Translations under genes and position numbers: made by a program
In this document: one piece after another, positions 16,219-46,309 of the stretch
Numbering within the stretch: the stretch's first letter is position 1
How the letters are laid out: every line of letters starts with the position of its first letter
Notes under the pieces: generated by a model
Databases searched by the model: none
What the model saw: only the letters and a program-made list of their open reading frames with translations
What the model was told of the DNA's origin: nothing
Source of the DNA: an uncultured Pseudomonadota bacterium
GTDB lineage: Bacteria > Pseudomonadota > Gammaproteobacteria > Natronospirales > REEB76
Length of the DNA stretch: 64,000 bases
Direction: 5' to 3'
Assembly: GCA_963774895.1 (NCBI GenBank)
Contig: CAVZGN010000004.1
Coordinates: 299,825 to 363,824, forward strand

Positions 16219-17605
16219 GGTTCTGACCAGCGACCATCGACGCTTGTGCGACACCCCACCGCGAGCCCGGATCCGGCAGCCGCCCACGCAGGGAATTCTG
16301 CTTTACCTCGGTGATCAGCACCTCCGCGAACCGGCCGATGAGGCGCGGATCGCCGGCGAAATTCACCCAGCGGTTACATTCTGTCCTGCCGGCCAGCTCG
16401 CGTGGGTTTTTGGTCGAGGGGCGCTCCACCAGTACCCGTTGTTTAGTAGCTAACAATCGCCGCATATAGGCCTGACCGAAATCATGAATTCGCGCCTGCA
16501 GGGTTTCCAGACGTCGTACTTTTTCCTCATGGGGTACATCATCCGCAAATGACGCCGCCGGCGTGCCGGGTCGCCGGCTGTAGATGAAGCTGAAGGCCTG
16601 ATCGAATCTGATTTCATCCACCAGTTTCAGGGTGGCTTCGAAATCCTTATCGGTCTCGCCCGGAAAGCCCACGATAATATCCGTGGACAGGCTGATGCCG
16701 GGACGCACCTCCCGCAATTTTCTGATCTTGGCCTTGTATTCCAGTACCGTGTGATTGCGTTTCATGGCGGCCAGGATCCGGTCCGAGCCGCTCTGCACCG
16801 GCAGGTGCAGGTAGTTGGCCAGCTTGGATACCGCTGCGAATGTGTCTATCAAGCGATCCGAAAATTCCAGTGGATGCGAGGTGGTGAAGCGGATGCGTTC
16901 GATATCCTCCATGACTGCGATATATTCGATCAGCATGGCCAAATCAGCGACCGAGCCATCATGCTTCAGACCGCGGTATCCGTTGACGTTCTGTCCCAGC
17001 AACGTGACTTCCTTGACGCCCTGTTCAGCTAGCCCGGCGATTTCAGCCAGCACGTCATCGAATGGCCGGCTGACTTCCTCGCCGCGGGTATAGGGCACCA
17101 CACAGAAAGTGCAGTATTTGCTGCAACCTTCCATGATGGAGACAAATGCGGTGGCGCCCAGCGCCCGCGCCGGCGGCAGATTGTCGAATTTCTCGATCTC
17201 GGGGAATGAAATATCCACCACCGGTCGGCGAGTGCGGCGGGATTCCTCCAGCATCTCCGGCAGGCGATGCAGCGTCTGAGGGCCGAACACCAGGTCCACG
17301 AACGGCGCGCGCTTCACGATACCCGCGCCTTCCTGGCTGGCCACGCAGCCGCCCACACCGATAATGACTTCCGGGTGCTGCTGCTTCAGTTCACGCCACC
17401 AGCCAAGTTGGGAGAACACCTTCTCCTCGGCCTTCTCGCGCACCGAACAGGTATTGAGCAGGATTACATCCGCTTCTTCCACCAGTTCGGTTAATTCATA
17501 ACCATGGGAAGCCCGCAACACGTCCGCCATTTTGGCAGAATCGTATTCGTTCATCTGGCAACCGAAGGTTTTGATATATAACTTACTGAACGCCATGCCG
17601 CTCAC
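16211..17605 (-). CDS. miaB: tRNA methylthiotransferase
   Basis: [18 protein letters not shown], radical [15 protein letters not shown] domain. Confidence 0.97.
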
Positions 17606-19494
17606 TTCACGACCTGAAGATGTGGACGCAGCTGGCGTTTGTCTTGATCTTCCGAAAACACACCATGTTGGTACTCTGGAACCATGGAACGCAATACATT
17701 CAAAGCCTGCTCTTGATCCGCAATACTTATCGCCTTCCTTAGTTGCTCAAGACCGTTGGACAGGCTACCAATAGCCGTTTCACGACAACCTGCGAGCATC
17801 AATTTTGGGTGCACCGTGGTACGCAGCGTCTCATGAGAATAAAAAAGCTCTTCGTGCAGCTTCTCTCCGGGACGCAATCCGATATAGGTGATTTTAATGT
17901 CACGGCCGGGTTGCAAACCTGAAAGCTGAATGAGTTTTTCAGCCAGATCGCGGATTCGGACCGGTTCCCCCATATCCAGAACGAATATTTCTCCACCTTT
18001 GCCAATAGCACTGGCTTGCAGTATCAAACTCGCGGCTTCAGGGATGGTCATGAAAAAACGCGTGATTTCCGGATGCGTAACCGTGACCGGACCACCAGTC
18101 TCAATTTGATGTTTAAAGAGCGGTACTACAGAACCCGCGGAGCCAAGCACGTTACCAAAACGTGTGGTAATAAAATGGGTGCTGCTGGATTCATTCTGCG
18201 CCTGACAATAAAGCTCGGCAACACGTTTGGTGGTTCCCATTACATTGGTTGGATTAACGGTCTTGTCGGTCGATATTAAAACGAAGGTCTCAGCGCCATG
18301 CCGTTTTGCCATGTCTGCGACAATTTGCGTGCCAAAGACGTTATTTCGTATACCTTCGATTACATTGTCTTCTACCAATGGTACGTGTTTATAAGCCGCT
18401 GCATGAAATACAACCTGAGGTTTGGATTTGGCAAACAGGGCATTGATAGCGTGTTCATCCCTAATATCGCCGAGAAGTGTATTGAACAACATACCGGGGA
18501 AAGCAGTGCTGATTTCCTGATCAATGCGATATAGATTGTATTCGCAACTATCCAATATGATCAGCAATCCTGGATTATGTTTGGCTATTTGCCGGCATAA
18601 TTCCGAACCAATGGAGCCGCCGCCGCCTGTGACCAATACGCGCTTGTCGCGCAGAAACACGTTAACGCTCTCTCGGTCCAGAATTACCGGGTCACGCCCC
18701 AGCAGGTCTTCGACTGTGACCGGACGCAACCGCGAAACCTCTACTCTGCCGTCGACCAGCTCACTTAACGACGGTAAAGTACGGCAGGTGACATCGGCCT
18801 CCGCACAGATGCTCACCACACGATTCATCACAGATCGGGATGCTGACGGCAACGCAATCAGTACCGCACTCACGTCCAGTGACCGAATGATAATGGAGAT
18901 ATCGTCCAGTGTTCCTCGCACGGTGACGCCATGAATGTCTTGACCCTGCTTGGATGGATCATCATCCACAAATGCAACAGGCTGAAATGGTCCGTGTCTT
19001 AACAGATCTCTGACCAGCATTTCACCACCGCGACCAGCACCAACAATCAAAGCGTTTACGCGAGTTGGGGCCACACGAAACAACACGGCGTGCTCTTTGA
19101 TTATGCGGTTGAGGATGCGTGTGCCCATCACACCGGTTACCAACAAAATCGGGTACAGCACTAGAACTGACCGGGGTATCCCCTGCAAGCGGATAAGCAG
19201 AAATACGCCTAACACTGTTGCAAGGGCACCCAGGCAGACGGCTTTGAGAATGCGAACAAAATCCGGGACTGAAGCAAACCGCCACACACCGCGGTAACAA
19301 CCAAAGAGCCAGAATGTGGCCGCATGGATCGGTACGGCAAAAGCCAGCAATACCAGCGCGGTTTCCAAATACCGCCGCTCTGGAAGCATGAGATTGAAAC
19401 GCAATAGATAAGCAAGTGCGATAGTCACGGGCACCCACAGCACATCATGTGCAAAGATCACCCATTGCCGCCTTAAGATCCGCAATACATCCAC
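17602..19494 (-). CDS. Membrane-bound UDP-GlcNAc 4,6-dehydratase (WbpM/CapD/PglF family)
   Basis: 4 N-terminal TM helices; [49 protein letters not shown]. Confidence 0.95.
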
Positions 19495-19515
19495 TTCAAT
19501 TCCCCAGTAAGTCCA

Positions 19516-20556
19516 CTATTGCGCTCGATTAGTGCCCCGGAACAAAAACGCAAACAAAAGATAAATTAAGCACCAGCTACTGATCACTAGCCATTGCAGC
19601 CATTCGCGCTGTGAATACAGCGCGATTATACCAGAGGCACTGCAAGCCAACATCACCGCTGATTCAGCAATTAGAATCGGAGCATGCCGGCCATTACATA
19701 AAATTACCAACTGCTGATAATAGTGATCTCGGTGAGCCAGCCAAATGTATTCTCCCCTAAACAGACGCCGAAACACGGTTATCGTCGCGTCAACCCAGAA
19801 CGGCGAAAATACCAAGGCTGGAAACCATAATGGTACCGCTGCGCGAACCGCGGCTTCCAGGCTCAAAGAGGCTGCAAGAAAGCCAAGCACGGTAGATCCC
19901 GTATCGCCCATAAATATTCGCGCTGGCGGTATATTCCATACAAGAAACCCACCGGTAGCCGCAGCAATTATCCATGCCTGTGCGCAGAGATCGTTTGCGC
20001 CTGTGCTGAGGCAGGCCAGACCTAATGCTCCAAATCCGATAACAGACATGCTGGCGGCCAAACCATCCATGCCGTCCATAAAATTGTACAGATTCGTCAT
20101 CCAAACGATGGCTATTATCAAGCAAACGACAGTCATCCATCCGCAGGTAACAGATACGTCCGGCGCGAATATCAGGGTGATGTTTATATATTGAATCGCG
20201 ACAAAGAATGCTGCCGCTGCATGTACGCACAATCTCAGTAATGGAGGTAACGAGCGTATGTCTTCAAATAGAGAGATGCCTGCTACCGGCAGCGCAAAAT
20301 AAAATAGCGGCAAGGTTGTCGTACCTGTCAGTGTGAGACAGGCGAGTCCGGCCATTAGACCTACAATTATCGCTACCCCACCCAGCCTCGGCGTCGGCTG
20401 CAGATGCAATGATCTGGCCCCAGGATGATCTATCGCCACTTTGGAGCCATGCCAGCGGGATAATAAACCAGTCAGTATCAACGATACAAAAAACGCGAAA
20501 GCCAGTGCTGCAATCTTGGTCACCCTGCACCCTCGGCCAATAGCTGCATAAATCAA
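19516..20556 (-). CDS. MraY/WecA-type undecaprenyl-phosphate HexNAc-1-phosphate transferase (WbpL-like)
   Basis: RSLHxxPTPRLGGVAI, NLYNFMDGMDGL, WNIPPARIFMGDTGS, AHRDHYYQ. Confidence 0.93.
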   Translation of the reverse strand: MIYAAIGRGCRVTKIAALAFAFFVSLILTGLLSRWHGSKVAIDHPGARSLHLQPTPRLGGVAIIVGLMAGLACLTLTGTTTLPLFYFALPVAGISLFEDIRSLPPLLRLCVHAAAAFFVAIQYINITLIFAPDVSVTCGWMTVVCLIIAIVWMTNLYNFMDGMDGLAASMSVIGFGALGLACLSTGANDLCAQAWIIAAATGGFLVWNIPPARIFMGDTGSTVLGFLAASLSLEAAVRAAVPLWFPALVFSPFWVDATITVFRRLFRGEYIWLAHRDHYYQQLVILCNGRHAPILIAESAVMLACSASGIIALYSQREWLQWLVISSWCLIYLLFAFLFRGTNRAQ

Positions 20557-21815: not shown

Positions 21816-22919
21816 TTAAAGCGCCTTGTAAAAGGACTTAAGAGTCGCGGCTTCTGTAGCCCAATTGGCATTGCGCATAACATATGCCCTCGCTTTTTTG
21901 CCCAGAATTTCGCGCTTATTCGCATCTGCGAGCAGCGTGGAAACCGCCGTATAGATTGCGTCTGCATCCGATGGGTCAACTTGAATGCCGGCGGATGATT
22001 GCTGCGCGATATCGCCCCAAAACGGAAAGTCGGATAGCACTGCGGGAATGCCGGCGGCAAAATATTCGAACAACTTGGTTGGCAAAGCGGTCAGGTAATT
22101 AGGTTGCGCCGAAAGCAGACACAGACCCACCGCAGCACCCGCCAGCGCATTCGGTATATCTCTGGCAGGCAGTTCGCCGCGGTAATCGACACCACTATCC
22201 CTAATTCCATGCTCAAGCAACGGAGCTGCCTCACGATCCACGCGGCCAACGAGTGTTATCGGTTCACCGAGCCGTTTTCCCAGTTCAATCATGATGGGCA
22301 GTCCACGGTCCAGGGAAATACGGCCGACATAGATCGCTCCCCTGCGCTGCGCGCCCGGAACCGTTATAGAAAAGCGTTCCACGATGGGATAATTTCTGAC
22401 CAACACAACATTATTCACCGTGCCGGCAAAGCGTTGTTGAATATCCGGCGTAGCCGCTACGATACCAGTCATGAAGCGCGACAAAGTGAGCTCCAGAAAT
22501 CCAGCGAGACGGGAAAATGGTCGCCGCAAAGCAGGAACAATCCACGGCTTAGCAGCAATTTGCCGTGGCAGGTGCTCATGGGCGTCGTACACCACGCGCA
22601 TGCCGCATATCCGGGCCAATAATCCCAACGGCAGCAGTTCCGGATCGTGGAGATGCACGATCCGCGGCCGCAAGCGTCTCAATATCAACAAGAACCGGTA
22701 ATTTCCAAGCCAGGCGCGTCGCCAGCGACCATGAGGCCTGGGCAATCCAAGGGTAAACCAGTGGTGTCCATGGCGCCGCTCATGTTTGTCACAATGCAAC
22801 CAGCACACCCGGTATCCCGCCATGATTATTGCCGGGATTTCCTTTTCCCAGATGCGTGGATCATGCATGGGATGTACGGAACTGGCAACGCAAACCAAAT
22901 TGCCGTGGTTTGCTGACAT
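21816..22919 (-). CDS. GT4 glycosyltransferase (WbpH-like)
   Basis: SSVHPMHDPRI, HLHDPELLP, YDAHE, PTKLFEYFAAGIP. Confidence 0.9.
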   Translation of the reverse strand: MSANHGNLVCVASSVHPMHDPRIWEKEIPAIIMAGYRVCWLHCDKHERRHGHHWFTLGLPRPHGRWRRAWLGNYRFLLILRRLRPRIVHLHDPELLPLGLLARICGMRVVYDAHEHLPRQIAAKPWIVPALRRPFSRLAGFLELTLSRFMTGIVAATPDIQQRFAGTVNNVVLVRNYPIVERFSITVPGAQRRGAIYVGRISLDRGLPIMIELGKRLGEPITLVGRVDREAAPLLEHGIRDSGVDYRGELPARDIPNALAGAAVGLCLLSAQPNYLTALPTKLFEYFAAGIPAVLSDFPFWGDIAQQSSAGIQVDPSDADAIYTAVSTLLADANKREILGKKARAYVMRNANWATEAATLKSFYKAL

Positions 22920-24646
22920 CAGAAGCCCAATGTCACATCAGTCGTTATCTCCGGGGTAACATCAATGGGCACCTCCGGCGCCTGGCTGCCAGGTTGCACA
23001 TTCAAGTCACTCACATTCTGTAGTTCAATTTCGCCGTTGTTCCAAGTAATTGCAATGGATTCCTGCATCACCACGCCACGGGAAATACCGTTTTTGTAGA
23101 CCACAATGGTTTTTGTATTTGTCGCCCAAGTCTCGAAATATTGCAACAGGTTTCTGTCTTTCCATACCTGGATAATGGTCGATTCTACACATACAACTAC
23201 AGAAGCTGGTGCTGATAAAAGCATTAAAAGTTGGAGCTCTGAAAAATTGTCATGAGTGAAGGTACGCCAGATATCTGTAGCAATAGGTTGATCGACTTTG
23301 CTCCATAGCTCTCCAATCAATGGCTGTATTGCTTTTAACAACTCAGGATCGAGTTCAGTGCGCTTGATTGCAGACGGCATATAATCAATCAGGGTCGAGC
23401 TTACCGGCACTCCTTCAAGAAATAAGGGAGGGTATCGGACTGAATAGAATATTCCATTGGACTTGCTGGCTATAAATCGGTACAGACCGGGAATGAACGA
23501 ATCTTGCATGTAAGATACTGGCATTACTCCCGCGCTCATCTTAGGGAGGCTGGCGATGAGCTCTCCAGCTCTTTGCTCCCATGGCCAAGATTTCAGTTCG
23601 CCCGAGAGCTTGGAGACCAGCATGAAATAATAATTGACGGGCTGGTAGAAGCGATTGAGACTCGTGATGCTCACCATAGTGCTTTTGAGGCTGGAATATG
23701 CGAAATTTGTAAGCAATACAAACAATACCACGTGATTAAGATCTATCTTTATGCCAATCAGCGCAGCTAATAAGAAAAGTGCTGCCACTATTGCGACAAA
23801 TGTAATGCCGGTCACGGCACGGCTGGTGGCAAAAATGGAATATATAGATATTCTGGCATCCAGATTTGTCCCAATTTCTCCCTCAGTAAAGGTGCGATTA
23901 ATCAAGGCTTCAGCGCTTGGGCTTTTTGCTGGATTTGGCGTCAATATATAATTCAAAACATTTCTGTACTGTTCCGTTGCTTTCTGAGCAGTATCTTCTT
24001 CGGTTCGGGTATCCCTCGCGGCTTTTATGCTGTTATACGCATGCAGCCACATGGATATGACAATAATTCCGCCAAGCAACAGTGTTAACCAGGGAAATAC
24101 GATCAACAGTATTACAGCGCATGCCAATAGTGTGAATACCGAGCGTACCGCACCCATGGTGATATAGGCTATGCGCTGAAGAAGAGCGCAATTTGTTGTC
24201 AGTACGCGGAGCAGCACTTCGCGCGCATTCTTCCCGGCCAGCACGCTGTCCAAGGATGGTGATCCAATACCTTTTGTAGCCAGTAACCATGAAAGTCTGC
24301 GCATACAAAATCGCTGGTATTCCACAGCCAGAATCGATTGCAATTTCTCGGCACGATACTGCGTCCAGCTCTGCAATAACAAGAGAATGACAATAACAAG
24401 GCCTACTGCTAACAGCCCCCATGGGGATGCTGGATTCCAATCGTGATGGTAGAAACGCATTGGAGAATGTTTCTGAAGACTTTCAGCGAACCGCTCTGCG
24501 ACTCCCACTGCCAGCAATCCCGCACCTATCCCAAAGAAGTAAAGACCGATCGCTGGCAGCGTTAGCTTAGCTTGATGCCATAACAGGTCCTTGACGACAA
24601 GGTTAACGGTCCGTGCATAGGCTGACAATTTCACGAAACCGAACAT
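22919..24646 (-). CDS. ABC-exporter-like membrane protein with degenerate nucleotide-binding domain
   Basis: 575 aa; about 6 TM helices spaced like a MsbA/PglK TMD in the first ~345 aa; soluble C-terminus lacks Walker A and LSGGQ. Confidence 0.55.
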   Translation of the reverse strand: MFGFVKLSAYARTVNLVVKDLLWHQAKLTLPAIGLYFFGIGAGLLAVGVAERFAESLQKHSPMRFYHHDWNPASPWGLLAVGLVIVILLLLQSWTQYRAEKLQSILAVEYQRFCMRRLSWLLATKGIGSPSLDSVLAGKNAREVLLRVLTTNCALLQRIAYITMGAVRSVFTLLACAVILLIVFPWLTLLLGGIIVISMWLHAYNSIKAARDTRTEEDTAQKATEQYRNVLNYILTPNPAKSPSAEALINRTFTEGEIGTNLDARISIYSIFATSRAVTGITFVAIVAALFLLAALIGIKIDLNHVVLFVLLTNFAYSSLKSTMVSITSLNRFYQPVNYYFMLVSKLSGELKSWPWEQRAGELIASLPKMSAGVMPVSYMQDSFIPGLYRFIASKSNGIFYSVRYPPLFLEGVPVSSTLIDYMPSAIKRTELDPELLKAIQPLIGELWSKVDQPIATDIWRTFTHDNFSELQLLMLLSAPASVVVCVESTIIQVWKDRNLLQYFETWATNTKTIVVYKNGISRGVVMQESIAITWNNGEIELQNVSDLNVQPGSQAPEVPIDVTPEITTDVTLGF

Positions 24647-34509: not shown

Positions 34510-34665
34510 ATGGTCATATCGCATAAGTACAAATTTATTCTTATTAAGACTGTCAAGACTGCCGGTACGAGCATCGAAGTCTTTCTATCCCAGCACTTTC
34601 GCCGACCGCTAGCGGCAACCATTCCATTATACGCACGTATTCAAAATCCACAGCCACCCATCTAA
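34510..34665 (+). pseudogene. Truncated sulfotransferase (N-terminal fragment)
   Basis: MVISHKYKFILIKTVKTAGTSIEVFLSQH is a typical sulfotransferase N-terminus with KTAGTS loop; stop after 51 codons followed by AT-rich DNA. Confidence 0.8.
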
Positions 34666-35491: not shown

Positions 35492-35650
35492 TGAGATCAC
35501 CCCACTAAGCACAATCAATAATATATATAATAAGTTTTCCGGTACAACCGTCTAAGTTCTTAACAAGCATTGGTAATCAGAAAAGACCTTATGCATTTCC
35601 CCTGATCGTCCGCTCCAGGCCGGATGCTGACCGGTACGACGAGGTTCTTA

Positions 35651-36364: not shown

Positions 36365-36368
36365 GGCG

Positions 36369-38450
36369 TTAGCCTCGCCCAACAAGACTACGCTCGATTA
36401 ACCGGAAGCCTTTCAAATTCACACTCAATTGCGGCTGATCCTTTTGAAGGTAAATTGCGAAATCGATTCGCGAAATGCCTTCCGGTGCCCGATATGAAAC
36501 TGGGTGCGTGACGCTGTGCGGTCGTAGATAAGCCAGGTTTTTCTTCATTCGCAATTCGAAGTCGTTCCCAAAGCATAACGCAATGACACGCGCCTCTCCT
36601 CGCCCTAGAACTTCTGCATCAATTAACAGCTCATAATAACGTCCAGGGTTTACTGGCCAACCCTGTTTAGAATTTATTCTGCGCCACGGACAGTGTCCTA
36701 ACGTCATATATCCATGTTGACTAGGATTTACGAGCGTTAGCAGTAAAGCCTCGTCGCTTTTCTTTGCATTTAGATTAGAAATACGCAAATTGCTGTCGTT
36801 ATTATTATTAAATTGCACTTCTACCAAAATAACTCCTGGCACATCTAATACGGAATTTATTGATACACCGCCAACGATTGCAGTCTTTCTGAGTATCCTG
36901 GTTGCAAACCGTAGTGGATACTGGAGAAACCGTATAATGTAATCACGCCAAGTTAAGCGCCATCGGTCATCGCTATAGAATTGATCCACCACGAACCCGC
37001 AGACCTGCCAGAAACGCCAACGCTGATAAACGTTCCACTTATTTAAAGCTGACATCTGGTTTATCTGTCCATTATTTATAGATGTTCTATGCACCGGCTC
37101 AGCAAGACGTGGGTAGAAAGCGATTCCCACACTCTGTAGTGACTTTTTAAGTTGCTCCTTGTTGGTCGCGATGTCTTCAAGGCGTATAACTACTGGACAT
37201 GCAACCGATAAACGCAACATCACGTCGGCAACATAAATGCAGCATTTATCGAACTGCGGTAACCATTTCCATGTGGGTCTATTGATTTTGGGATGAAGAT
37301 TATCATCCGGAGTCGTGTACCAATCCCGATTCATGATTGATCTGACTATATCGGCGGGATGACGCGCAAGTTGCACCAAGGTCGCTTCGGGGAAAAGCTG
37401 CTTTAATTCTGGGATAAACTGTTCCAGATATACATTCACCTCGGCATAGTCGCGCTTATTATGTTCGATATCCATGCGGAGATCTGCCAGCAAACTCACA
37501 ACCTTTTCACGCTGTTCCAGCAGTTGTGTGAATCCGGCGCCTGTTTCCTTGCGGGTTAACATCTGTATTCCGTCAAAATAATGATTCAGCGCATATTCAT
37601 GACGGGCATGCACGGAACTTGCTTCATCGAGTACTCTTGCAAGCCAAGTACTGCCAGAGCGCGCAGTGGACAGAAAGAAGTACTGGCGTGCTTTACCCAG
37701 CCAGTGCACCGGATGAAATAGGACTTGATGCCGGCCGCTCTTTAAAGTGGCGGTCATAGGGTCAGGACTGCGCAACCAGCTGCCCCCGCTATCCGTGAAA
37801 TAATCATCAAATGGTACATGCATGGCATCGTATACCAGCCCGCACTCCTTCAATCCGATGCTCCACAGAGGAAAAGTTGCGCCATCTGCGCGTTGCAGTT
37901 GGTGTGAGGCAGGGTATTGCAAGGCATGCTTGGGGTCTTCGGGTGAAATGCCTTCGGCTGAAAGACCAGTCTCCCGCAAGGCAGGATCGGCCGGCTTTAA
38001 GTCGCGAAAACACCAATAATTGCTGAACTGGTATTTATAACAGGCGCGATCGCCATGCGCAGATACACCGGTGATTCGTACTCCTTGTTGTTTCAGTGGC
38101 TTAACCAGAGAGGTAATCGCATCAGCCACATCGTCAATCTCGCCTGTAAACCAGCGAGTCAACATATTGAGGTGCAGTCCTACTTCATGCCCGAAATCCT
38201 GCAACTGCAGGCATTTATCGATAAAACGAGAGTCGTTCCAGTAATCGGCAGAATGCAGAAGAAAATAGGTGGCGCGATAGCCGTATTCTGCTTCCCAATA
38301 TGCCATCTCAAGCCCAATATCAAGATCATGGTCCACGTCATGCCGCAAAACCACGAGATTGGGGGCATCTTTTTTGCTGTGTAATGCGGAGACCGGCTCG
38401 GTATTTCCCAGATGGCGTAGATACTCGAAATATTCCTTGCGAATGGTCAT
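36369..38450 (-). CDS. Fusion of polysaccharide deacetylase-like domain, sulfotransferase and C-terminal beta-sandwich
   Basis: LRHDVDHD, GLH, SAHG, HPVHW, then STARSGST and LARHPADIVRS; ATG overlaps the upstream stop (ATGA). Confidence 0.8.
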   Translation of the reverse strand: MTIRKEYFEYLRHLGNTEPVSALHSKKDAPNLVVLRHDVDHDLDIGLEMAYWEAEYGYRATYFLLHSADYWNDSRFIDKCLQLQDFGHEVGLHLNMLTRWFTGEIDDVADAITSLVKPLKQQGVRITGVSAHGDRACYKYQFSNYWCFRDLKPADPALRETGLSAEGISPEDPKHALQYPASHQLQRADGATFPLWSIGLKECGLVYDAMHVPFDDYFTDSGGSWLRSPDPMTATLKSGRHQVLFHPVHWLGKARQYFFLSTARSGSTWLARVLDEASSVHARHEYALNHYFDGIQMLTRKETGAGFTQLLEQREKVVSLLADLRMDIEHNKRDYAEVNVYLEQFIPELKQLFPEATLVQLARHPADIVRSIMNRDWYTTPDDNLHPKINRPTWKWLPQFDKCCIYVADVMLRLSVACPVVIRLEDIATNKEQLKKSLQSVGIAFYPRLAEPVHRTSINNGQINQMSALNKWNVYQRWRFWQVCGFVVDQFYSDDRWRLTWRDYIIRFLQYPLRFATRILRKTAIVGGVSINSVLDVPGVILVEVQFNNNNDSNLRISNLNAKKSDEALLLTLVNPSQHGYMTLGHCPWRRINSKQGWPVNPGRYYELLIDAEVLGRGEARVIALCFGNDFELRMKKNLAYLRPHSVTHPVSYRAPEGISRIDFAIYLQKDQPQLSVNLKGFRLIERSLVGRG

Positions 38451-40090
38451 GGAGACCCCATCAATTCCCGATAATATTCCGTCAGTTTTGTAGCCTCGAT
38501 TTCCCAATTGAAATCTGTTGCTGCGCGCTTCATGTTACGACGAACATGTTCAAGAATGGCAGGATCATCGAGAACAGCACGCGCAGCGCGCGCGATATTC
38601 TCTGGCTCATCTGGGTTGAATGTCATGCCAATGCCGTAGTCTTCAACGACTTTCCTCAATTCAGGGAAATCACTAGCTATAACGGGTATGCCAGCCAATA
38701 CATACTCATACACCTTGTTTGGCGAGCAGTAGTAGTAACTCAGGCATTTATTTTCAATTGGGGCGACACCAATATCCGCGCAGGCCGCATACGTAGTGAC
38801 AAGATCAGAACGTACTGCTTCCAAAATATAAAGACGGTGGACAATACCTAGTAAATCTGCATGCTTCAAGAGTTCTTTCTTGTACGTCTCGCTTCCTGGT
38901 CCCATAAATACCAAAACGCACTCTGGCAGCAGTTGCATAGCAGAAATCAATTGCTTCAATCCACGATTGAAGGTAATGGCGCCCACATATATTAAAATCT
39001 TTATTTTCGCATCGATTTTAAGAATCTCACGTAATGGATCTCCGACCGGCGCATCGACAGGTCGCTGGAGTGAAGGGGTATTGCGGATAACCTTTAGCGG
39101 CGCAATATCGTAACGTTTACCAATAGCCTCAGCTATAGATTCATTGACAGTAATAGCAAGCTGGCAACGCCTTAGCAGGAAACCTTCGAGCTTGAGCCTC
39201 CACCATCTAGAAAACCGTCCGTAAGGCTTTTGCATATTGCGCTCAAGATAGTACTCGTGTGAGTCATATACGAGCTTGGCTCCGGTAGCACGCGCCATCC
39301 ACCATGCTAGTGGTAAGGTATTGAGATCGTGCGCATGGTAAACGTCGAAATGTCTTTTTGTGAGCGCCCTTCTGGCTCGTAGATAATAGTCGGAAAAGCA
39401 TAACGGCCGATGATACTTGAGCAACACCTTCAACAATAGCGTGTATATCCATCCTTTCAAAATCCTTAATGTGATTTTGAATCCCCTTTTCATCCTGCGC
39501 CATCCATGCACCATTGTTCGGATAAAAAAGCGCAAGACAGACATCGTGATTCGTGCGTAGAATTTAACCTGCCATGGAGAGTTGTACTCCACATCAGATC
39601 TCGGTTCTACGAAATAATAGATGCCAATCTCCCAAAACATCACTGGTATGCTTATTGGAAAAACCAGGATAAGCAATGGCCAATACCAAACTGGAAAACG
39701 CGGCTGAGTGTCGGTATTTACATTCTGTTTACCTCGTGACCTTCGAAACAATCTTCCTACAGTTGCATGCATGAGAGAATTTATCCGCAACAGCGTCCAT
39801 AGTTTGATTACGGGAGTCAACAAGGCTGTCGTGCGAAAAATTCGCAAGAATCTCAAATGCACTGGATCCTTTATCACGCGTAGCACTTCAATCTCACCCA
39901 ACATCTGTCTTTCCGGCAACGTTCCTTCTCGCAACGCTACTACCGTTACCGACCAACCATCAGCCAACAGCGTCTCGGCCTCTTTACGGACACGCGCATC
40001 ATGGGTAAAGGTGTTGTAAACAAACATGCACACGCTGCCGCGGTGGATCGGTGCCAGCGGTGGCGTATCATGTTCCGGCACAATAGACAC
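38447..40090 (-). CDS. GT4 glycosyltransferase with large hydrophobic/basic insertion
   Basis: DARVRKEA, HAHDLNTL, YDSHE, SPNKVYEYVLAGIP; 547 aa. Confidence 0.88.
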   Translation of the reverse strand: MSIVPEHDTPPLAPIHRGSVCMFVYNTFTHDARVRKEAETLLADGWSVTVVALREGTLPERQMLGEIEVLRVIKDPVHLRFLRIFRTTALLTPVIKLWTLLRINSLMHATVGRLFRRSRGKQNVNTDTQPRFPVWYWPLLILVFPISIPVMFWEIGIYYFVEPRSDVEYNSPWQVKFYARITMSVLRFFIRTMVHGWRRMKRGFKITLRILKGWIYTLLLKVLLKYHRPLCFSDYYLRARRALTKRHFDVYHAHDLNTLPLAWWMARATGAKLVYDSHEYYLERNMQKPYGRFSRWWRLKLEGFLLRRCQLAITVNESIAEAIGKRYDIAPLKVIRNTPSLQRPVDAPVGDPLREILKIDAKIKILIYVGAITFNRGLKQLISAMQLLPECVLVFMGPGSETYKKELLKHADLLGIVHRLYILEAVRSDLVTTYAACADIGVAPIENKCLSYYYCSPNKVYEYVLAGIPVIASDFPELRKVVEDYGIGMTFNPDEPENIARAARAVLDDPAILEHVRRNMKRAATDFNWEIEATKLTEYYRELMGSP

Positions 40091-40095
40091 AGCGT

Positions 40096-41253
40096 TTACA
40101 TCACTGACGCAAACGCGCTCACAAGATGTTGTTGATCCTCTATACGCAAATAGGGACCGGACGGTAAACTCATCACTTCATGACAGGCCTGCTCGGAGAC
40201 CGGGAAATCGTCAGGTTTATATTCAAGACCGCTGTAGGCACTCAGTAAATGTAACGGTTTTGGATAATAGACAGCTGTTGGTATCCCTTGCGATTTCAGT
40301 TTCTGTTGCACGCTATCGCGTTTACCGGGAACACGTACGGTATATTGTGCCCAAGCTGACAAACAGTCTTTTGGAACACGCGGTAAAACCTTCGACAATC
40401 CAACGGCTGTAAATAATTCCGCATACCGGTCTGCCACTTGCTGTCGAAGCTGCAGCTCGCCTTCGAATTGAGGCCACTTCGCCAGCAAGATTGCCGCCTG
40501 CAATGTGTCCATGCGTGCGTTCAGTCCAATACGTACATTGTCGTATTTGTCCTCGCCCTTGCCATGTATGCGAATGGAAAGCATGGCTGCGGCCAGTGCC
40601 TCATCGTCTGTAAACACCATACCGCCGTCACCGTAACATCCAAGCGGCTTTGCCGGGAAGAAACTGGTGGTGGAAACATCGCCAAAACAACATGCAGGGC
40701 GGCCACGATATTTCGCTCCAAAAGATTGGGCTGCGTCTTCAATAAGAAATAGTCCTTCTTTCCGGCAAATGGCGGCTATGGATTCATAATTGGCCGGGAC
40801 ACCGAAAATATCCACGGCGATCACGGCGGCACAATTGAGTGGCTGATTCAGCCTTGGCAAGGGATAAATCGTGGAATCGTTCTCGCGCACTGCACGAATC
40901 GCAAGGCGCAATTGCTCGGGGTTTATGTTGAAAGTTTCTGGTACAACATCCACGAAGATCGGCGTTGCCCCCACAAGCGATATCATTTCGGCGGTGGCAA
41001 AAAACGTAAACGGCGTGGTAAACACGGCATCCCCGTGTCCGATTTCGCGCGCCATCAGCGGCATGAGCAGTGCGTCAGTACCGGAAGAGCAGGAAATCGC
41101 ATGCCGCTTCCCCGTATATTCTGACAACGTGCGTTCCAGTTCCTCGATTTCCGGCCCCATGATGAACTTTCCATGTTCAAGCACATGTTTTATTCGTTCA
41201 AGTATGGCCTTGTGCGACAGTTCATACTGAGTTCTAAGATCGATGAATTCCAT
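40096..41253 (-). CDS. wbpE: DegT/DnrJ family aminotransferase (WbpE-like)
   Basis: MEFIDL, IEDAAQSFGA, SFFPAKPLGCYGDGG; follows wbpA-B-D. Confidence 0.88.
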   Translation of the reverse strand: MEFIDLRTQYELSHKAILERIKHVLEHGKFIMGPEIEELERTLSEYTGKRHAISCSSGTDALLMPLMAREIGHGDAVFTTPFTFFATAEMISLVGATPIFVDVVPETFNINPEQLRLAIRAVRENDSTIYPLPRLNQPLNCAAVIAVDIFGVPANYESIAAICRKEGLFLIEDAAQSFGAKYRGRPACCFGDVSTTSFFPAKPLGCYGDGGMVFTDDEALAAAMLSIRIHGKGEDKYDNVRIGLNARMDTLQAAILLAKWPQFEGELQLRQQVADRYAELFTAVGLSKVLPRVPKDCLSAWAQYTVRVPGKRDSVQQKLKSQGIPTAVYYPKPLHLLSAYSGLEYKPDDFPVSEQACHEVMSLPSGPYLRIEDQQHLVSAFASVM

Positions 41254-41274: not shown

Positions 41275-41850
41275 TCAGACGCCAGACAACCGGCCGTCAC
41301 GCAATATATACACCTCACCGGTCTGCGGACACAATGCTTGTCCCGTACCCTGAACTGGCAGATCTAGCCTGTTTCCAGCGCGGCTCATCCAACCGATATG
41401 ACGCGCTGGCACACCCACCATCAACGCGAAATCCATGACATTACTGGTGATAACTGCGCCAGCACCTACAAATGCGTATTGGCCGATGGTTACACCACAT
41501 ATGATGGTGCAGTTAGCGCCCAGTGACGCACCGCGACGAACAAGCGTATCACGGTACTCGTCTTTGCGAATAACCGCGGCGCGCGGATTATAGACATTGG
41601 TGAACACCATACTAGGGCCGCAAAACACGTCATCTTCCAGCGTCACATTGTCGTATACCGATACATTATTTTGGATCTTGACGTTATTGCCGATGAGCAC
41701 GCGATTTCCCACAAACACGTTTTGACCGAGCGAGCAGCGCTCGCCGATCACTGCGCCACCGCATACATGAACCCAATGCCAGATACGCGTACCTTCCCCG
41801 ATTCTGGCGCCGGCATCGACGATGGCAGTTTCATGTGCGGAATAACCCAT
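41275..41850 (-). CDS. wbpD: Hexapeptide-repeat N-acetyltransferase (WbpD-like)
   Basis: 191 aa; [29 protein letters not shown]. Confidence 0.92.
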
Positions 41851-41867
41851 GTCACGGCATTCCTTGA

Positions 41868-42947
41868 TCAATAGTCCAGCGGCAGGGATACTCTGCGACC
41901 ATCGCGCGCCGAGATGTATATGGCAACCAGCAGCTCCAAGGAGCGCAATCCCTCGCGGCCGTCGGTCTCAGCCTCGGCTTCACCCCGCAGTGTTTTGATG
42001 ACGTTCTCATAATAGAGAGCATGCCCGAAACCATAGACTGAGGTGGTGTCGTAATTGGCTTTTCTGACAAGCTCGTCGTCGGCATCAGAGTCAGCAAACT
42101 GCCAGTGTTGGATCTCATTGACTGCGACGCCCCCAACTCTCACCGTGCCTTTCTCTCCCAGTATCGTAATGGAGCCCTCAAGATTTTTGGGGTATGTAAG
42201 CATGGTGACGTTCATGGAACCCAGTGCGCCGGAGCGCCATTTGATACTCACCACACCGCTGTCTTCCACCTCGATGTTGCGTGCCAGGGTGGCTGTGAAG
42301 GCCTGAACACATTCCACCGGCCCGACCAGCCAGTCCAGCAAATCCACATAATGGCTTGCCTGGTTCATGAAGGCACCTCCATCGAATTCCCAGGTGCCAC
42401 GCCATTTAGCGCTATCGTAATAGGCTTGGGGGCGGTTCCATAAGACGTTAACATTGACCATATAGATACGTCCGAAGCGCTTTTTTTCGATGGCACGCTT
42501 CAATAACTGGATGGTGGCATTGCGGCGATTCTGCTTGACGACGAATAACATCACGCCCGCTTCATCGCAGGCTTTGACGAAATCCTTGCCGTCTTCCCAG
42601 CGTGTGGCCATGGGTTTCTCCGACACCACGTGAAACCCGGCTTTGGCAATTTGTATGCCCTGGCTGGCATGTAGGCCGCTCGGTGTGGCCAGTATGACGG
42701 CATCGAAGCCCCCGGCCCCGAGCATAGATTTCAGGTCAGGGTGGCCTTTGACTTCAGTATTGCCACAAGCCGCCTTCAGAGCAGTCGCATCGGTATCACA
42801 CACAGCTACCAACTCGGCATGTTCCGCGTGTTTTTGCAGGGATTCGAAGTGCTTCGCAGAAATGCGCCCACAACCCACGAGGGCAAATCGGATTTTCCGA
42901 TCGCATATTGGTTTGTAATTACCAGTCATATTCATCGCATCCTTCAA
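41868..42947 (-). CDS. wbpB: UDP-GlcNAcA 3-dehydrogenase, Gfo/Idh/MocA family (WbpB/WlbA-like)
   Basis: [42 protein letters not shown]. Confidence 0.9.
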
Positions 42948-44281
42948 GCCTTGACGACATTGTCATACTGATCGCGGTAGACACCACGACTATCCACGAT
43001 CAGTTTTGCATACTTGCGAATTTTGTCATAATCAAAATCGGTATGATCTGTAGCCACCAGCACGCAATCGAAGCGCGTAAGCGACTCATCGGTCAATGCA
43101 ATGCTCTTGAGGTCAAAACTATGGTCGCGCATCTTTGGGAATGACGGTACGTAAGGATCGGAGTACTCCACATGGACACCCTTGCTTCGCAGTATTTCCA
43201 TAATATGCACCGAGGGTGATTCGCGCATATCGTCCACGTTTTTCTTGTATGCAATCCCCAATACTAGGATATGGCTGCCATTCAGGGCCTTACCCCGCTT
43301 GTTCAGGCCATCCACGATTTTTGATACTACCCAATCCGGCATAGCGCTGTTGACCTCACCCGCGAGTTCTATGAAGCGGGTATGCACGCCGTATTCGCGC
43401 GCCTTCCAGGTAAGGTAGAACGGATCAATGGGAATGCAATGCCCGCCCAAGCCCGGGCCCGGATAATACGGCACGAAGCCGAAGGGTTTGCTGGCAGCTG
43501 CATCAATGACTTCACGGATATCGATACCCATGCGGTCGGCAACGATTTTCATCTCATTCACCAATCCGATGTTCACAGCCCGGTGTATGTTCTCCAACAG
43601 CTTGGTCATCTCGGCCGCACGGGTGGAACTGACCGGTATTATCTTATTAACCACCTGCTCGTAAAGTGCTACGCCGATGTCACGGCAAGCTGGCGTATAA
43701 CCGCCGCACACTTTTGGAATGTTGGAGGTGGTGAAATTCATATTGCCTGGATCCTCGCGCTCGGGCGAGAACACTAGAAATACATCCTTGCCAACGCGTA
43801 GACCACGACTTTCAATACGCGGTTTGAGTTCCTCGTCGGTAGTCCCGGGATAAGTAGTACTTTCCAGTGAAACTACCTGGCTGGAGCGCAGATGCGGTAC
43901 CAGTGCATCCATGGTGTCGGTGACGAATGAGAGATCCGGCTCGCGATGCGAATTCAGTGGTGTAGGTACACAGATAATCAGTGCATCCGCCTCTTTGGCG
44001 CGCGCGAAATCCGTGGTGGGTTGGAATCCCGCTTTGATGGCTGCGCCGATTTTCGGATCAGCGATATGTTTAATATAGCTGCGGCCTTGCTGCAACGTCT
44101 TCACTTTGTCCGGATCGATGTCGAAACCGATGACTTTGTAACCGACTTCGGTGAAACGCAGCATCAGCGGCAATCCGACATAGCCGAGACCCACGATGCC
44201 GATCACCGCCTGGCGATCATGCAGCTTCTGTAGAAGCGCTTCTTGATGATTGTGCTTGGAATCGTTCATTTCCGACTGCAT
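42944..44281 (-). CDS. wbpA: UDP-GlcNAc 6-dehydrogenase (WbpA-like)
   Basis: [40 protein letters not shown]. Confidence 0.92.
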
Positions 44282-44342: not shown

Positions 44343-44586
44343 GCGACGGAGTCCGCCGCGCCTACCACGCAATTCCATGTAGGAGTGGCCGGCGGACCAC
44401 TGGTCCGCGCCGCGATTCTCAATCCCAAACCATCGCGGTGGAGACCATCGCTCGTACCAATCACATTTCTTGTAGGAGCGATCCTCCGGGTCGCGATTCT
44501 GGTTCAAAATAATCGTGGCGAGAGCAGATTATTGCTCCTGCAAAATCTGCATTTCCGCCGTCCATGGCGGTCATCGCCGCTCCTAC
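44343..44586. repeat. Degenerate GTAG-type REP cluster
   Basis: GTAGGAG at 44379 and 44472; inverted units ending CCTAC at 44365 and 44586; spacer CCCAAACCATCGCG shared with the 15101 cluster. Confidence 0.85.
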
Positions 44587-44596
44587 CATAACAGCG

Positions 44597-46309
44597 CTAT
44601 TCAAGAAAACCGGCCGACTTGATGAGCTGCATGACCCGTTCCGCCTCTTCCTCGACCGTACCCTGGCCCGTGTCCAGTATAAGTTCAGGTTTCTCCGGCG
44701 CTTCATACGGATCACTGATACCGGTAAATTCCTTGAGAACGCCGGCACGTGCTTTGGCGTAAAGCCCCTTGCGATCGCGTTGCTCGCAGATCTCAATGGG
44801 AGTCGAAATGTAGATTTCGAAAAATCCGCCTAAAGGTTGGATCATATGACGCACATCCAAGCGGGTCGCGGCATACGGCGCAATAGGGGCACAAATTGCC
44901 ACGCCGCCGTTCTTGGTAATTTCGCTGGCTACATAGCCGATGCGACGAATATTGATGTCGCGATGTTCTTTTGAAAAACCTAACTCGCTGGATAAGTGCT
45001 TGCGCACCAAATCACCATCCAGCATGGTCACTGGACGGCCACCGATCTCCAGCAGCTTGACCATCAGCGCATTTGCGATGGTGGATTTTCCGGAGCCTGA
45101 CAATCCGGTGAAGAACACCGTGAAGCCCTGCCGGTTGCGCGGCGGATGAGTCTTGCGCAGTTCCGCCACCACTTCCGGGTAGGAAAACCATTCAGGGATT
45201 TCTAAACCCTTCTGCAGCCGCTCACGCAAATCGGTACCGGAGATATTCATGACGGTTTCGCCGGGCTTGATCTCGTCTTCGGGCGCATAACCGCCGCGTT
45301 CCTTGACGTAGACCATCATCTGGAAAGGTACCATCTGTATACCGATTTCATTCTCATATTTTTTCAACATTTCCTGAGCATCATAGGGACCATAGAAAGG
45401 TTTGCCGCGGCTGTCCTTGCCAGGACCAGCGTGATCGCGGCCCACGATGAAATGCGTGCAGCCGTGGTTCTTGCGGATGATGGCATGCCACACCGCTTCC
45501 CTCGGTCCACCCATGCGCATGGCCAGGGGCAGCAAAGCCAGCAGCGCCGAATGTTCGGGATAATGATCGATCAGGTGTTCGTAGCAACGCACCCGGGTAT
45601 AGTGGTCAATATCGCCCGGCTTGGTCATGCCCACCACCGGATTGAGTAACAGTTTGGCACCCACCTGTTCGGCTGCACGGTGCGTCAGTTCCAAATGTGC
45701 CCGGTGCATAGGATTACGAGTCTGGAATGCCACTACCTTGCTCCACCCACGTTGCTTGAACTGCTCGCGCACTTCTTGCGGTGTGAGCCGCAGTTGACGG
45801 AAATCATAATGCGTGGGTAACTCGATACCTTCGATACGCCCACCTAAATATACAGGGTTTGATATATGCAGCAGATGAGCGACACCTGGGTGCATCTCGT
45901 CTTCTGTACCAAAAACTACACGTGCTTCGCGGCGTAGGTCCGGTTCCCAGATGTCCTCCACCGTAAACAGTGCCAGTGGCACACCTTCTGCATCCCGCAG
46001 GGCGATTTTAGTTTCGGTTTTTAGCTTGCTGGCAAATTCCCGGCTCACGTCCAATGTGACAGGCATAGGCCAAAGACGGCCGTCAGTCAGACGCATCTCC
46101 TCCACCACGCGTTCGTAATCTGCGCGGTTCATGAAACTTTCGAGTGGTGAAAAACCCCCGTTGAGAAGAAGCTCGATGTCACAGAGTTGACGTTGGGTCA
46201 GATCCCACGACTGGAAGCCGATGGCATCTTGTTTAATTCGAGCTGCTGTGACGTCATCGACGTGAAGTCCATTCAATGGTTTTCCGTGCTGCTGGACAGA
46301 TTTATTCAT
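44597..46309 (-). CDS. sat/cysC: Bifunctional sulfate adenylyltransferase / adenylylsulfate kinase (PAPS synthesis)
   Basis: FQTRNPMHRAH and VGRDHAG (ATP sulfurylase), then [29 protein letters not shown] (APS kinase). Confidence 0.96.
   Translation of the reverse strand: MNKSVQQHGKPLNGLHVDDVTAARIKQDAIGFQSWDLTQRQLCDIELLLNGGFSPLESFMNRADYERVVEEMRLTDGRLWPMPVTLDVSREFASKLKTETKIALRDAEGVPLALFTVEDIWEPDLRREARVVFGTEDEMHPGVAHLLHISNPVYLGGRIEGIELPTHYDFRQLRLTPQEVREQFKQRGWSKVVAFQTRNPMHRAHLELTHRAAEQVGAKLLLNPVVGMTKPGDIDHYTRVRCYEHLIDHYPEHSALLALLPLAMRMGGPREAVWHAIIRKNHGCTHFIVGRDHAGPGKDSRGKPFYGPYDAQEMLKKYENEIGIQMVPFQMMVYVKERGGYAPEDEIKPGETVMNISGTDLRERLQKGLEIPEWFSYPEVVAELRKTHPPRNRQGFTVFFTGLSGSGKSTIANALMVKLLEIGGRPVTMLDGDLVRKHLSSELGFSKEHRDINIRRIGYVASEITKNGGVAICAPIAPYAATRLDVRHMIQPLGGFFEIYISTPIEICEQRDRKGLYAKARAGVLKEFTGISDPYEAPEKPELILDTGQGTVEEEAERVMQLIKSAGFLE

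Follow-up and report, generated by a model that had tools for sequence, protein, structure and literature searches.

The locus studied here (17602..46309) is a gene cluster of 29 kb from an uncultured bacterium, within the 64,000-nucleotide stretch of DNA that was analysed (the window). It fills the slot between ssb and miaB, a hypervariable surface-glycan site of the order that looks like an O-antigen locus, with rml genes and WbpM/WbpL. The GC content of the locus is 46-53%, compared with 57-61% in its flanks. A minus-strand run from 46309 to 34769 encodes Sat-CysC, a WbpA-type protein, WbpB, a hexapeptide acetyltransferase, a DegT aminotransferase, a GT4 glycosyltransferase, a 693-aa PF13469 protein and two SAM methyltransferases, and a plus-strand insert carries manC, manB, another GT4, a second PF13469 sulfotransferase and a 51-codon relic. 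The gene list of the initial annotation (sat-cysC, wbpA-B-D-E, four GT4s, two sulfotransferases plus a relic, methyltransferases, ManCB and WbpL/WbpM) was recovered in full, with every gene where it had been placed. The modules are not adjacent in this genome only: both ends of the locus occur in the same gene order in G026, a genome from a different family within the order, and the core is found again in different phyla. The description of the locus as self-contained did not hold, given that it has no flippase of a known kind, no polymerase or ligase and no WbpI.

Four adjacent minus-strand genes complete, by family assignment, the pathway to UDP-GlcNAc3NAcA, whose chemistry (WbpA-B-E-D) is established in P. 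aeruginosa. They encode a WbpA-type UDP-GlcNAc 6-dehydrogenase (42944..44281; PF03721/PF00984/PF03720 and TIGR03026, with the ortholog name taken from gene context), the UDP-GlcNAcA 3-dehydrogenase WbpB/WlbA (41868..42947), a WbpE-type aminotransferase (40096..41253; PF01041, E 2e-105) and, between wbpB and wbpE, a WbpD-type N-acetyltransferase (41275..41871, likely start 41847; three PF00132 matches). WbpB matched PDB 3Q2I (E 4e-180) and 3Q2K (E 2.5e-167), which we take to be WlbA; the next unrelated PDB match reached only 4e-25. There was no PF02350 match, i.e., no WbpI/WlbD 2-epimerase of the UDP-ManNAc3NAcA route that P. aeruginosa O5 and Bordetella band A use, in the 96% complete genome, and the gluco form of the diamino-uronate is therefore expected. 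At the other end of the locus, also on the minus strand, are a WbpM/WlbL-type membrane UDP-GlcNAc 4,6-dehydratase (17602..19494; PF02719, E 8e-120), a WbpL/WecA-type initiating phosphoglycosyltransferase (19516..20556; PF00953) and a GT4 pair (21816-22919 and the WcaI-like 20584-21798) that G026 has in the same order. No reductase or aminotransferase acting on the WbpM product was found in the locus.

Sulfate would be activated by Sat-CysC (44597..46309, minus strand), a bifunctional sulfate adenylyltransferase/APS kinase (PAPS synthase; NCBIfam PRK05537, 951 bits against a cut-off of 669) that is present in a single copy in the genome. Neither CysH/CysD nor AprA nor sulfite reductase was found in the 96% complete genome, so that Sat-CysC can feed sulfotransferases only. 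This supports the earlier proposal that the surface glycan contains a 2,3-diamino-uronate and is both sulfated and tailored. In this order, Sat-CysC belongs to the ssb slot: ssb lies directly upstream in 10 of the 14 relatives' regions fetched, and in relatives the enzyme heads unrelated glycan loci. Five other sulfotransferases (TPR) elsewhere in the genome are possible clients.

The plus-strand block comprises manC (29399-30823) and manB (30835-32205), which would supply GDP-mannose (TIGR01479 above cut-off; manC is single-copy in the genome), the glycosyltransferase GT4c (32418..33551; PF00534), the stand-alone sulfotransferase ST329 paired with it (33500..34489; PF13469, E 7e-13) and the relic, the first 51 codons of a sulfotransferase (34510..34665). 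The matches of the relic are 'sulfotransferase family 2' proteins (58% identity over 36 aa, E 7e-5), and its stop is not an assembly error, because an independent contig spans it (34405-34718) with zero differences. It is possible, though we consider it rather doubtful, that the locus is a patchwork, with one glycan made by the minus-strand genes and with manCB-GT4c-ST329 and Sat-CysC working mainly for other products. The opposite strand, the relic, the 280-616 bp gaps at the block edges and the TPR sulfotransferases elsewhere would fit this, as would the absence of ManCB beside the core in all 46 other fusion loci (0/46; it lies outside the conserved module) and the presence of sat/cysC in only 5/46. 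However, GT4c and ST329 adjoin the fusion in 6/46 loci from unrelated groups, and the core module stands either way. Partners ~50% identical to GT4c occur in L032, L033, L035, L038, L042 and L055.

The core finding is the 693-aa PF13469 protein (36369..38450, minus strand; the open reading frame runs to 38507), for which no description was found in the literature searched. Its structure model (pLDDT 93) comprises a deacetylase domain (residues 1-250), a sulfotransferase domain (253-495) and a C-terminal CBM-like beta-sandwich (537-689) with CBM22/29 as fold matches (Z 12-13). The deacetylase domain is a distorted (beta/alpha)7 barrel whose best fold match was WbmS, an O-antigen protein of Bordetella (3HFT; Z 10.8, rmsd 3.0, 164 residues aligned), tied with PplD (Z 10.0). 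The top 17 VIA rows were all CE4-type (Z 8.5-10.8), and the top Foldseek match was 2J13. For the sulfotransferase domain, the matches were TPST (Z 14.7), CurM/OLS (Z 14.6) and NDST (Z 11.4). The domain scored above the PF13469 cut-off and carries the PAPS signature, with a 5'-PSB loop (S-T-A-R-S-G-S) and R363 and S371 for the 3'-phosphate.

Both catalytic motif sets are intact in 116/116 aligned homologs, with D38, D40, H93, H132, D220, H246, R264, E285, R363 and S371 invariant. From the alignment, D38, D40, H93, H132, H246 and D220 are predicted to provide the catalytic Asp, the Asp-His-His metal triad and the His acid. The deacetylase motifs depart from canonical CE4 (DxD, with the second His 39 residues further along), one local deacetylase copy is degenerate, and WbmS is only 'putative' in its own PDB title. 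This could suggest that the deacetylase-like domains are scaffolds that bind sugar without catalysis and that the fusion is a plain sulfotransferase. We regard this as very improbable considering that the six polar site residues are invariant in 116/116 homologs and near-invariant in 72 diverse domains, and that D38 and H93 align with PgdA motifs in a profile comparison (E 0.08).

In its domain order the protein resembles human NDST1, a heparan-sulfate enzyme in which a single chain carries a CE4-like metal deacetylase, then a PAPS sulfotransferase, and also a third, non-catalytic domain. Residues 30-502 of the whole model aligned with 311-882 of NDST1 (9F6Z; 369 aligned, Z 11.6), and the comparison with 8CCY (NDST1) covered 640 columns, with both domains in the same order. 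However, identity is ~10%, the orientation of the domains differs (rmsd 21), the extra domain of the fusion is C-terminal and of jelly-roll type, and the substrate predicted for the fusion is a diamino-uronate. The deacetylase site is D319/D320/H389/H393/H529 in NDST1 and D38/D40/H93/H132/H246 in the fusion; NDST1 has DD, HxxxH and K614 motifs (PMC10864358), where the fusion has DxD, H93..H132 and an Arg-type 5'-PSB (R264) in 116/116 homologs. No NDST chain was matched at E<=10 in two profile searches, and there was no Pfam match to an NDST model. The fusion is most likely an independent assembly, NDST-like in domain order and outside the NDST family.

The fusion occurs in at least 9 phyla, and its holders include the anammox organism Brocadia as well as monoderm and archaeal ones (Desulfuribacillus, Tindallia and a Woesearchaeota bin). 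Its GT4 partner GT4d (38447..40090, minus strand; PF00534), which likely transfers the diacetamido-glucuronate, was detected in 38/46 fusion loci, lies within 400 bp of the fusion or is fused to it in 32/46, and in L072 forms one chain with it. A WbpD ortholog was present in 41/45 carrier genomes vs 8/66 genomes of this order (two of those 8 being carriers), a comparison in which the controls are not phylum-matched and the carriers include close kin. The SAM methyltransferase MT244 (35651..36385, minus strand; PF13649) travels with the fusion, at >=45% identity in 10/46 loci; the second one (34769..35518, minus strand; PF13649, E 3e-7; 40% GC) had no match in the 46 loci. Further sulfotransferases occur in 24/46 fusion loci and more deacetylases in many, which makes the assignment of enzymes to steps ambiguous.

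Three more deacetylase-like domains had been noted previously and are present, in an RHDVD protein of 299 aa (26805..27704) with an intact site and in a tandem two-domain protein of 698 aa (24712..26808), both on the minus strand. They share 59-62% protein and 68-74% DNA identity with one another, by which the tandem protein is a local duplication of the 299-aa gene. Its second domain is intact; its first, in which three conserved residues are replaced (D40->I, H93->L and H246->N), is probably inactive. The gene for the GNAT-like protein (27800..28783, minus strand) is likewise present, at the same position in G026. Its GNAT assignment is weak: the protein itself had no Pfam or PDB match; it has 31 homologs, and PF00583 was matched by 5/30 (best E 0.002). 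It is a putative GNAT-fold protein and a candidate re-acylating enzyme. Homologs in Desulfuribacillus and Tindallia lie six accessions from the fusion, and the gene is near the fusion in 1/46 loci only.

In a 2,3-diacetamido-uronate, an uncommon amino-sugar acid, O4 is the single free hydroxyl, and it is free only when the residue ends the chain. This leaves a sulfotransferase tied to a deacetylase the choice between the amine and O4. A possible but less favoured reading is that the same glycan is O-sulfated by the fusion, either on a neighbouring sugar or at O4 of the last diamino-uronate, where the sulfate would be a cap that stops the chain, with the amine left free, methylated or GNAT-re-acylated as in the Bordetella cap or the Wbp/Vim pathway. 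This would be consistent with the O-sulfotransferases as closest folds, the PF13469 membership, an Arg/Glu pair in place of the Lys of NDST, the methyltransferases and GNAT-like protein in the locus, and the CBM-like domain, which would fit a chain-end enzyme. Sulfate esters are also found in Vibrio capsule and archaeal glycan structures, as far as the accounts drawn on here describe them (PMC11641403, PMC11407970). Nonetheless, O-sulfation leaves unexplained why both domains are fused and intact in 116/116 homologs with a GNAT-like gene so rarely nearby, and the acceptor atom cannot be read from the fold neighbours, given that NDST scores like 3-O-sulfotransferases (Z 11.3-11.4). Judged from sequences and structure models, N-sulfation by the fusion would have slightly less than an even chance and O-sulfation an appreciably smaller one.

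The Wbp/Vim pathway of P. gingivalis and T. forsythia, as outlined in PMC7468200, counts for N-sulfation by the fusion as a precedent for de-N-acetylation and then re-substitution of the same sugar: a putative CE4 deacetylase frees one nitrogen of the WbpABED sugar and a second enzyme re-substitutes it. In that outline the partner is the acyltransferase VimA, which adds Ser/Gly, whereas in the present protein the deacetylase is joined directly to a sulfotransferase. To our knowledge, no sulfation is known for the variable wbm region and the wlb band-A locus of Bordetella. A role in tailoring the diamino-uronate at the chain end is predicted for genes of the wbm region, and the likeness extends to WbmS, the WlbA-type dehydrogenase and the WlbL-type dehydratase; the Bordetella polymer is an L-galacturonate homopolymer (PMC3849452, PMC2615507). 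Our locus lacks Wzm/Wzt, WbpI and formyltransferases. The capsule locus of Vibrio sp. KMM 8419 likewise combines PAPS synthesis with sulfotransferases within a glycan cluster, which its description calls a hallmark of sulfated polysaccharides, but it has kps ABC export, a Rha/Glc backbone and CysDN-CysC and no deacetylase, a word that does not occur in the paper (PMC11641403). Cobetia marina KMM 1449 is reported to have another marine sulfated capsule locus (PMC11766843).

With regard to export, no wzx or wzy and no Wzm/Wzt or Kps-type ABC-2 membrane/ATPase genes were found in the locus; the one PF01943 gene of the genome sits in another cluster, and of its 8 PF01061 genes, the 4 inspected have no glycan neighbours. 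The glycosaminoglycan-like polymer proposed earlier lacks support, since no Wzy, Wzm/Wzt or polymerizing glycosyltransferase was seen in the locus, and a short chain is therefore likelier than a long polymer. A 575-aa half-transporter gene (22919-24646) had been overlooked in the initial annotation.

This minus-strand gene (22919..24646) encodes an MsbA/BmrA-fold ABC protein with a degenerate nucleotide-binding domain, a candidate translocase. It has a six-helix exporter membrane domain, and its family profile (746 representatives at E<=1e-30) matched BmrA (E 4e-12) and MsbA (E 4e-9) over both domains. The family thus aligns with type IV ABC exporters (MsbA, BmrA, Sav1866) over the membrane domain and nucleotide-binding region, but it has lost the Walker A and signature motifs: among 135 members, LSGGQ/E occurred in 0/135, and there were two chance-like Walker A strings and two Walker B-like ones. 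Some members have nothing beyond the membrane domain except an acidic tail. Without ATPase motifs, the half-transporter cannot power flipping alone. It is present in 33/46 carrier genomes; in two of them, those of L034 and L039, it occurs alongside an intact ABC exporter.

Outside the locus, an O-antigen ligase-like (WaaL-like) protein (10278..12017, minus strand; PF04932) is a candidate for glycan attachment. It is the sole PF04932 copy above cut-off in the genome, and G005 has a 54% ortholog in the corresponding position. An unlikely alternative to LPS is that the tailored glycan goes onto protein (pilin, flagellin or S-layer) or another lipid. The ligase-like protein matches TfpM weakly (27.5 bits, cut-off 600), the MsbA-fold half-transporter resembles PglK, itself a type IV ABC exporter, and the module also occurs in the monoderm and archaeal holders, where LPS cannot be the carrier. 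However, no STT3/PglB was found, a separate Wzx-type glycan locus adjoining pilB/pilD is a better pilin candidate, and the slot behaves like an O-antigen locus.

We favour, at a little below even confidence, a locus that makes a short glycan linked to Und-PP and probably meant for LPS, in which one polypeptide de-N-acetylates and N-sulfates the diacetamido-glucuronate. Sat-CysC would provide PAPS and WbpA-B-E-D the UDP-GlcNAc3NAcA; WbpM/WbpL would start the chain on Und-P, the three minus-strand GT4s would extend it, and GT4d would add the diamino-uronate. By fold and motifs, the Asp-His-His metal site of the fusion would then hydrolyse one acetamide, and its sulfotransferase domain would cap the freed amine with sulfate. 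The stand-alone deacetylases, GNAT-like protein and methyltransferases may modify O4, the second nitrogen or further residues, and the plus-strand block (manCB, GT4c, ST329), a later insert in this reading, may add an O-sulfated branch. In the weakest steps, the lipid-linked glycan might be moved or handed over by the ATPase-dead half-transporter and attached by the WaaL-like ligase, a single one, encoded 5.6 kb downstream.

More broadly, and more tentatively, prokaryotes could have an N-deacetylase/N-sulfotransferase of their own in the fusion, which would have arisen independently of animal NDST when a WbmS-type deacetylase was joined to a TPST-type sulfotransferase. It would then produce N-sulfo-diamino-uronate glycans in at least nine phyla, with Brocadia among the producers, and travel with a family of ATPase-dead half-transporters. 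If so, such half-transporters would represent an undescribed kind of lipid-linked glycan translocase, and the fusion would offer a first candidate for the origin of the N-sulfated, glycosaminoglycan-like polymers that have been described in granular sludge.

A 693-aa fusion protein (36369-38450, minus strand; predicted deacetylase, PAPS sulfotransferase and CBM-like domains) had 279 homologs at E<=0.001 that, where named, were called only 'hypothetical' or 'sulfotransferase'; the best 120 of the 279 shared 43-51% identity across the first 500 residues. In a structure model made from 116 sequences (pLDDT 93), fold searches matched residues 253-495 to tyrosylprotein and CurM-type sulfotransferases (Z 14.4-14.7) and residues 537-689 to CBM jelly-rolls (Z 12-13). 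The same model aligned collinearly with human NDST1, an animal N-deacetylase/N-sulfotransferase, over the two catalytic domains (369 residues, Z 11.6, rmsd 21). Folded alone, residues 1-252 (pLDDT 97) matched CE4 deacetylases. WbmS of the Bordetella O-antigen locus (Z 10.8) came first, level with PplD and IcaB; NDST1 fell outside the top 50 folds for this domain, which is no proof of difference. A direct PDB search with a 299-aa deacetylase gave no match. Residues D38, D40, H93, H132, D220 and H246 of the fusion, together with the PAPS residues R264, E285, R363 and S371, were kept in 116/116 aligned homologs. The NDST1 site, as described in the available part of the source, consists of D319/D320/H389/H393/H529 with K614 (PMC10864358), and because the spacing of the fusion's residues differs, the two share the same logic but belong to different families. 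No signal peptide was evident when the sequence was judged by eye, which would fit a cytoplasmic PAPS-using enzyme.

Our genome scan yielded 78 loci. Forty-five of these held the fusion (L031-L075) and, with the relative G026, make up 46 fusion loci; 24 loci with a stand-alone deacetylase (L085-L108) formed the control set, and nine partial or intermediate matches (L076-L084) lie outside both counts. Within about 10 kb of the fusion, its glycosyltransferase partner GT4d was present in 38/46 loci (adjacent or fused in 32), an additional sulfotransferase in 24, the 575-aa-type membrane protein in 23, a second deacetylase type in 16, a stand-alone RHDVD deacetylase in 13, two methyltransferase families in 15 and 10, wbpD in 12, the glycosyltransferase GT4c with the stand-alone sulfotransferase ST329 in six, sat/cysC in five and GNAT in one. 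The module's sulfotransferases were found in 0/24 control loci. Since wbpD occurred in 14/24 of these, the distribution of this deacetylase family in general tracks the diamino-uronate (2,3-diacetamido-glucuronate) pathway. WbpD was present in 41/45 carrier genomes vs. 8/66 genomes of the order, a comparison set that is not phylum-matched. In G026, ssb is followed by sat-wbpABDE-GT4d-fusion and the methyltransferase MT244, while miaB is preceded by sulfotransferase-GNAT-membrane protein-GT4-GT4-wbpL-wbpM; the two parts lie on two contig ends. The initial annotation had allowed that the modules might be adjacent only in this genome; our locus comparison showed both minus-strand blocks recurring in G026, and the core module in the other fusion loci, so their adjacency is not peculiar to this genome, but that of manCB found no parallel (0/46). 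The fusion module is real and conserved. A second conserved deacetylase-like family with a QHDVD motif and no Pfam match (L039:12266-13330 and 15 other loci) accompanies the fusion elsewhere and is absent from the window genome.

Carriers of the fusion belong to nine phyla in the rows of our tree, plus Bacillota by name, and several are close kin. They include the cultured Halochromatium glycolicum DSM 11080, Anaerohalosphaera lusitana, Desulfuribacillus alkaliarsenatis, Tindallia magadiensis, Halofilum ochraceum and Methylophilaceae LSUCC0665, as well as Ca. Brocadia (L032, P0046). Within the order, the fusion was present in 3/66 genomes and in 0/20 congeners, and it was not found in plasmids. 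A quick-version tree left the window fusion unplaced and did not group it with the G026 copy (37% identity). A Woesearchaeota bin (L044) holds wbpABDE-GT4d-fusion and the half-transporter discussed below; its fusion groups with those of Halochromatium and Halofilum, either by transfer or by mis-binning. In an Acidobacteriota bin, GT4, deacetylase and sulfotransferase form one 1350-aa chain (L072:7961-12010).

In the window, ORF calling and family scans bore out the earlier gene inventory of the locus, which is bounded by miaB (16211-17605) at one end and ssb (46411-46911) at the other. Three blocks were distinguished: a minus-strand 5' block (sat-cysC, wbpA, B, D, E, GT4d, the fusion and two methyltransferases), a plus-strand insert (manC, manB, GT4c, ST329 and a relic) and a minus-strand 3' block (a GNAT-like gene, two deacetylase-like genes, the 575-aa membrane protein, two GT4s, wbpL and wbpM). 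GC content is 46-53% in the locus vs. 57-61% in its flanks. The relic corresponds to codons 1-51 of a family-2 sulfotransferase gene; it had no match by Pfam or in the fetched loci, and its stop is also present in an independent contig. Near-identical DNA was held by soil metagenomes of three studies, one possibly being the source, and no RNA data were listed among the holders of near-identical sequence. Promoter, terminator and ops scans gave chance-level hits only. At 24712-27704 a deacetylase domain is triplicated (68-74% DNA identity), and one of the three copies, with three site residues changed, is probably a recent pseudo-enzyme domain.

Among relatives, ssb lies directly upstream of Sat-CysC in 10/14 fetched regions, while the genes that follow vary by genome (wbp, rml or others); in G005, the slot closes with wbpM-miaB-phoH and the same ligase-like gene. 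This recurrence of Sat-CysC behind ssb with differing genes after it identifies the slot as a hypervariable surface-glycan locus of the order, of which the PAPS synthase is a resident. Sat-CysC as a gene specific to the fusion module was ruled out, as it is full-length in 9/18 congeners sampled but rare in the fusion loci. An rmlA-C-D-B cluster (dTDP-rhamnose; 47011-50318) lies between an MFS gene and ssb, and in relatives the rml genes are found on one or the other flank of MFS, ssb or sat. No GT2 that would be expected to use dTDP-rhamnose lies in the locus.

No PAPS reductase/CysD, AprA above cut-off or sulfite reductase was found in the 96.4% complete genome, which leaves sulfotransferases as the sole outlet for PAPS and rules out a role of Sat-CysC in sulfur metabolism. 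The consumers are the two sulfotransferases in the locus and five TPR-containing ones elsewhere (two of the five confirmed by Pfam). These five form two tandem groups (G000:C1:786789-792453 and C2:8198-11792), each adjoining a TonB-dependent receptor gene. Judged by gene content, sulfate activation in this organism appears to serve sulfation alone, and reduced sulfur would have to come from outside.

With regard to the product, no polymerase or co-polymerase was found in the locus, and genome searches found neither WbpI nor STT3. A single ligase-like gene is located 5.6 kb downstream, and beside pilB/pilD there is a distinct Wzx locus. The simplest reading is a short LPS-linked oligosaccharide with a gluco-configured diamino-uronate. 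This sugar can take sulfate only at O4 (chain end) or at a freed nitrogen. The constant deacetylase-sulfotransferase fusion favours nitrogen, and we tentatively give N-sulfation by the fusion a little under an even chance; O-sulfotransferase-like fold neighbours favour oxygen, a site that we consider rather doubtful. The Wzx locus (G000:C4:106000-123500) also encodes three DegT aminotransferases, two GNATs, three methyltransferases, two GTs and two 660-680 aa proteins without Pfam match, and is a candidate pilin glycosylation system. An arn-type cluster for lipid A modification (ArnT, DegT aminotransferase, GT2, formyltransferase) lies at G000:C3:132900-139700.

The 575-aa membrane protein (22919-24646, minus strand), overlooked in the initial annotation, had no Pfam match and no close homolog, a direct search returning only itself. 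A profile built from distant relatives in fusion loci aligned with BmrA and MsbA across the membrane domain and NBD and recovered 746 representatives at E<=1e-30; Walker A and signature are gone throughout this half-transporter family. Although its seeding favours carriers, the profile matched 33/46 carrier genomes (23 in view, 5/5, strong matches in 4/17, and G026) vs. strong matches in 0/24 control genomes, and 4/66 genomes of the order. Wzx was found in 1/46 fusion loci and intact ABC exporters in two, and in none of these three was the half-transporter in view. The idea that it strictly replaces known flippases, suggestive within loci, failed genome-wide for L034 and L039. Specificity to the fusion was ruled out, the family being broader than the module: 36 metagenome loci found by its motif (20 of them <10 kb) held the fusion in none and the module's sulfotransferase in seven, and most of the scanned neighbours were glycan genes of different types. 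Lacking Wzx and Wzm/Wzt, the locus offers no candidate translocase other than the half-transporter; the window genome has two intact exporters. The half-transporter may move lipid-linked glycan, either passively or with an active partner. More broadly, this large MsbA-fold family without ATPase motifs (P0122-P0270, L136-L174) has acidic C-terminal tails, some members lack the NBD altogether, and its glycan loci vary widely in type (sulfate, phosphonate, methyl, CDP-alcohol). Two other genomes in the order (G029, G043; L131-L133) have it alongside Stealth/LicD genes and neighbours that resemble phosphonate biosynthesis genes.

The module is a variation on known surface-glycan systems. According to the available parts of the sources, the Wbp/Vim pathway frees and then re-acylates one nitrogen of the same diamino-uronate (PMC7468200), Bordetella wbmO-Z, including wbmS, is predicted to act on a diacetamido-uronate chain by modifying its terminal sugar (PMC3849452, PMC2615507), and sulfated capsule loci are marked by PAPS genes and sulfotransferases (PMC11641403). 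We found no bacterial deacetylase-sulfotransferase fusion, Wbp cluster with a sulfotransferase or ATPase-dead glycan half-transporter in full-text literature covering few subscription journals. The fusion family is apparently undescribed and NDST-like in design. N-sulfated, glycosaminoglycan-like polymers have been reported from granular sludge and Pontiella using dye and nitrous-acid assays, in papers whose available parts call the producing enzymes or pathways unknown (PMC7356697, PMC10483923, PMC10788855). The fusion gene occurs in Ca. Brocadia, and it might be a candidate source of such polymers. Active NDST is described, in the part of the source available, as hard to express in microbes (PMC11069525); a soluble bacterial N-deacetylase/N-sulfotransferase, if true, would be of interest to heparin bioengineering, although heparosan is probably not its substrate. 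The family of half-transporters with dead ATPase domains raises a question of its own in glycan export. If sulfate goes on oxygen, the locus would be a more elaborate form of the sulfated surface-glycan clusters already known. The fusion family is a concrete candidate enzyme for N-sulfated polymers, and its cultured carriers make direct testing possible.
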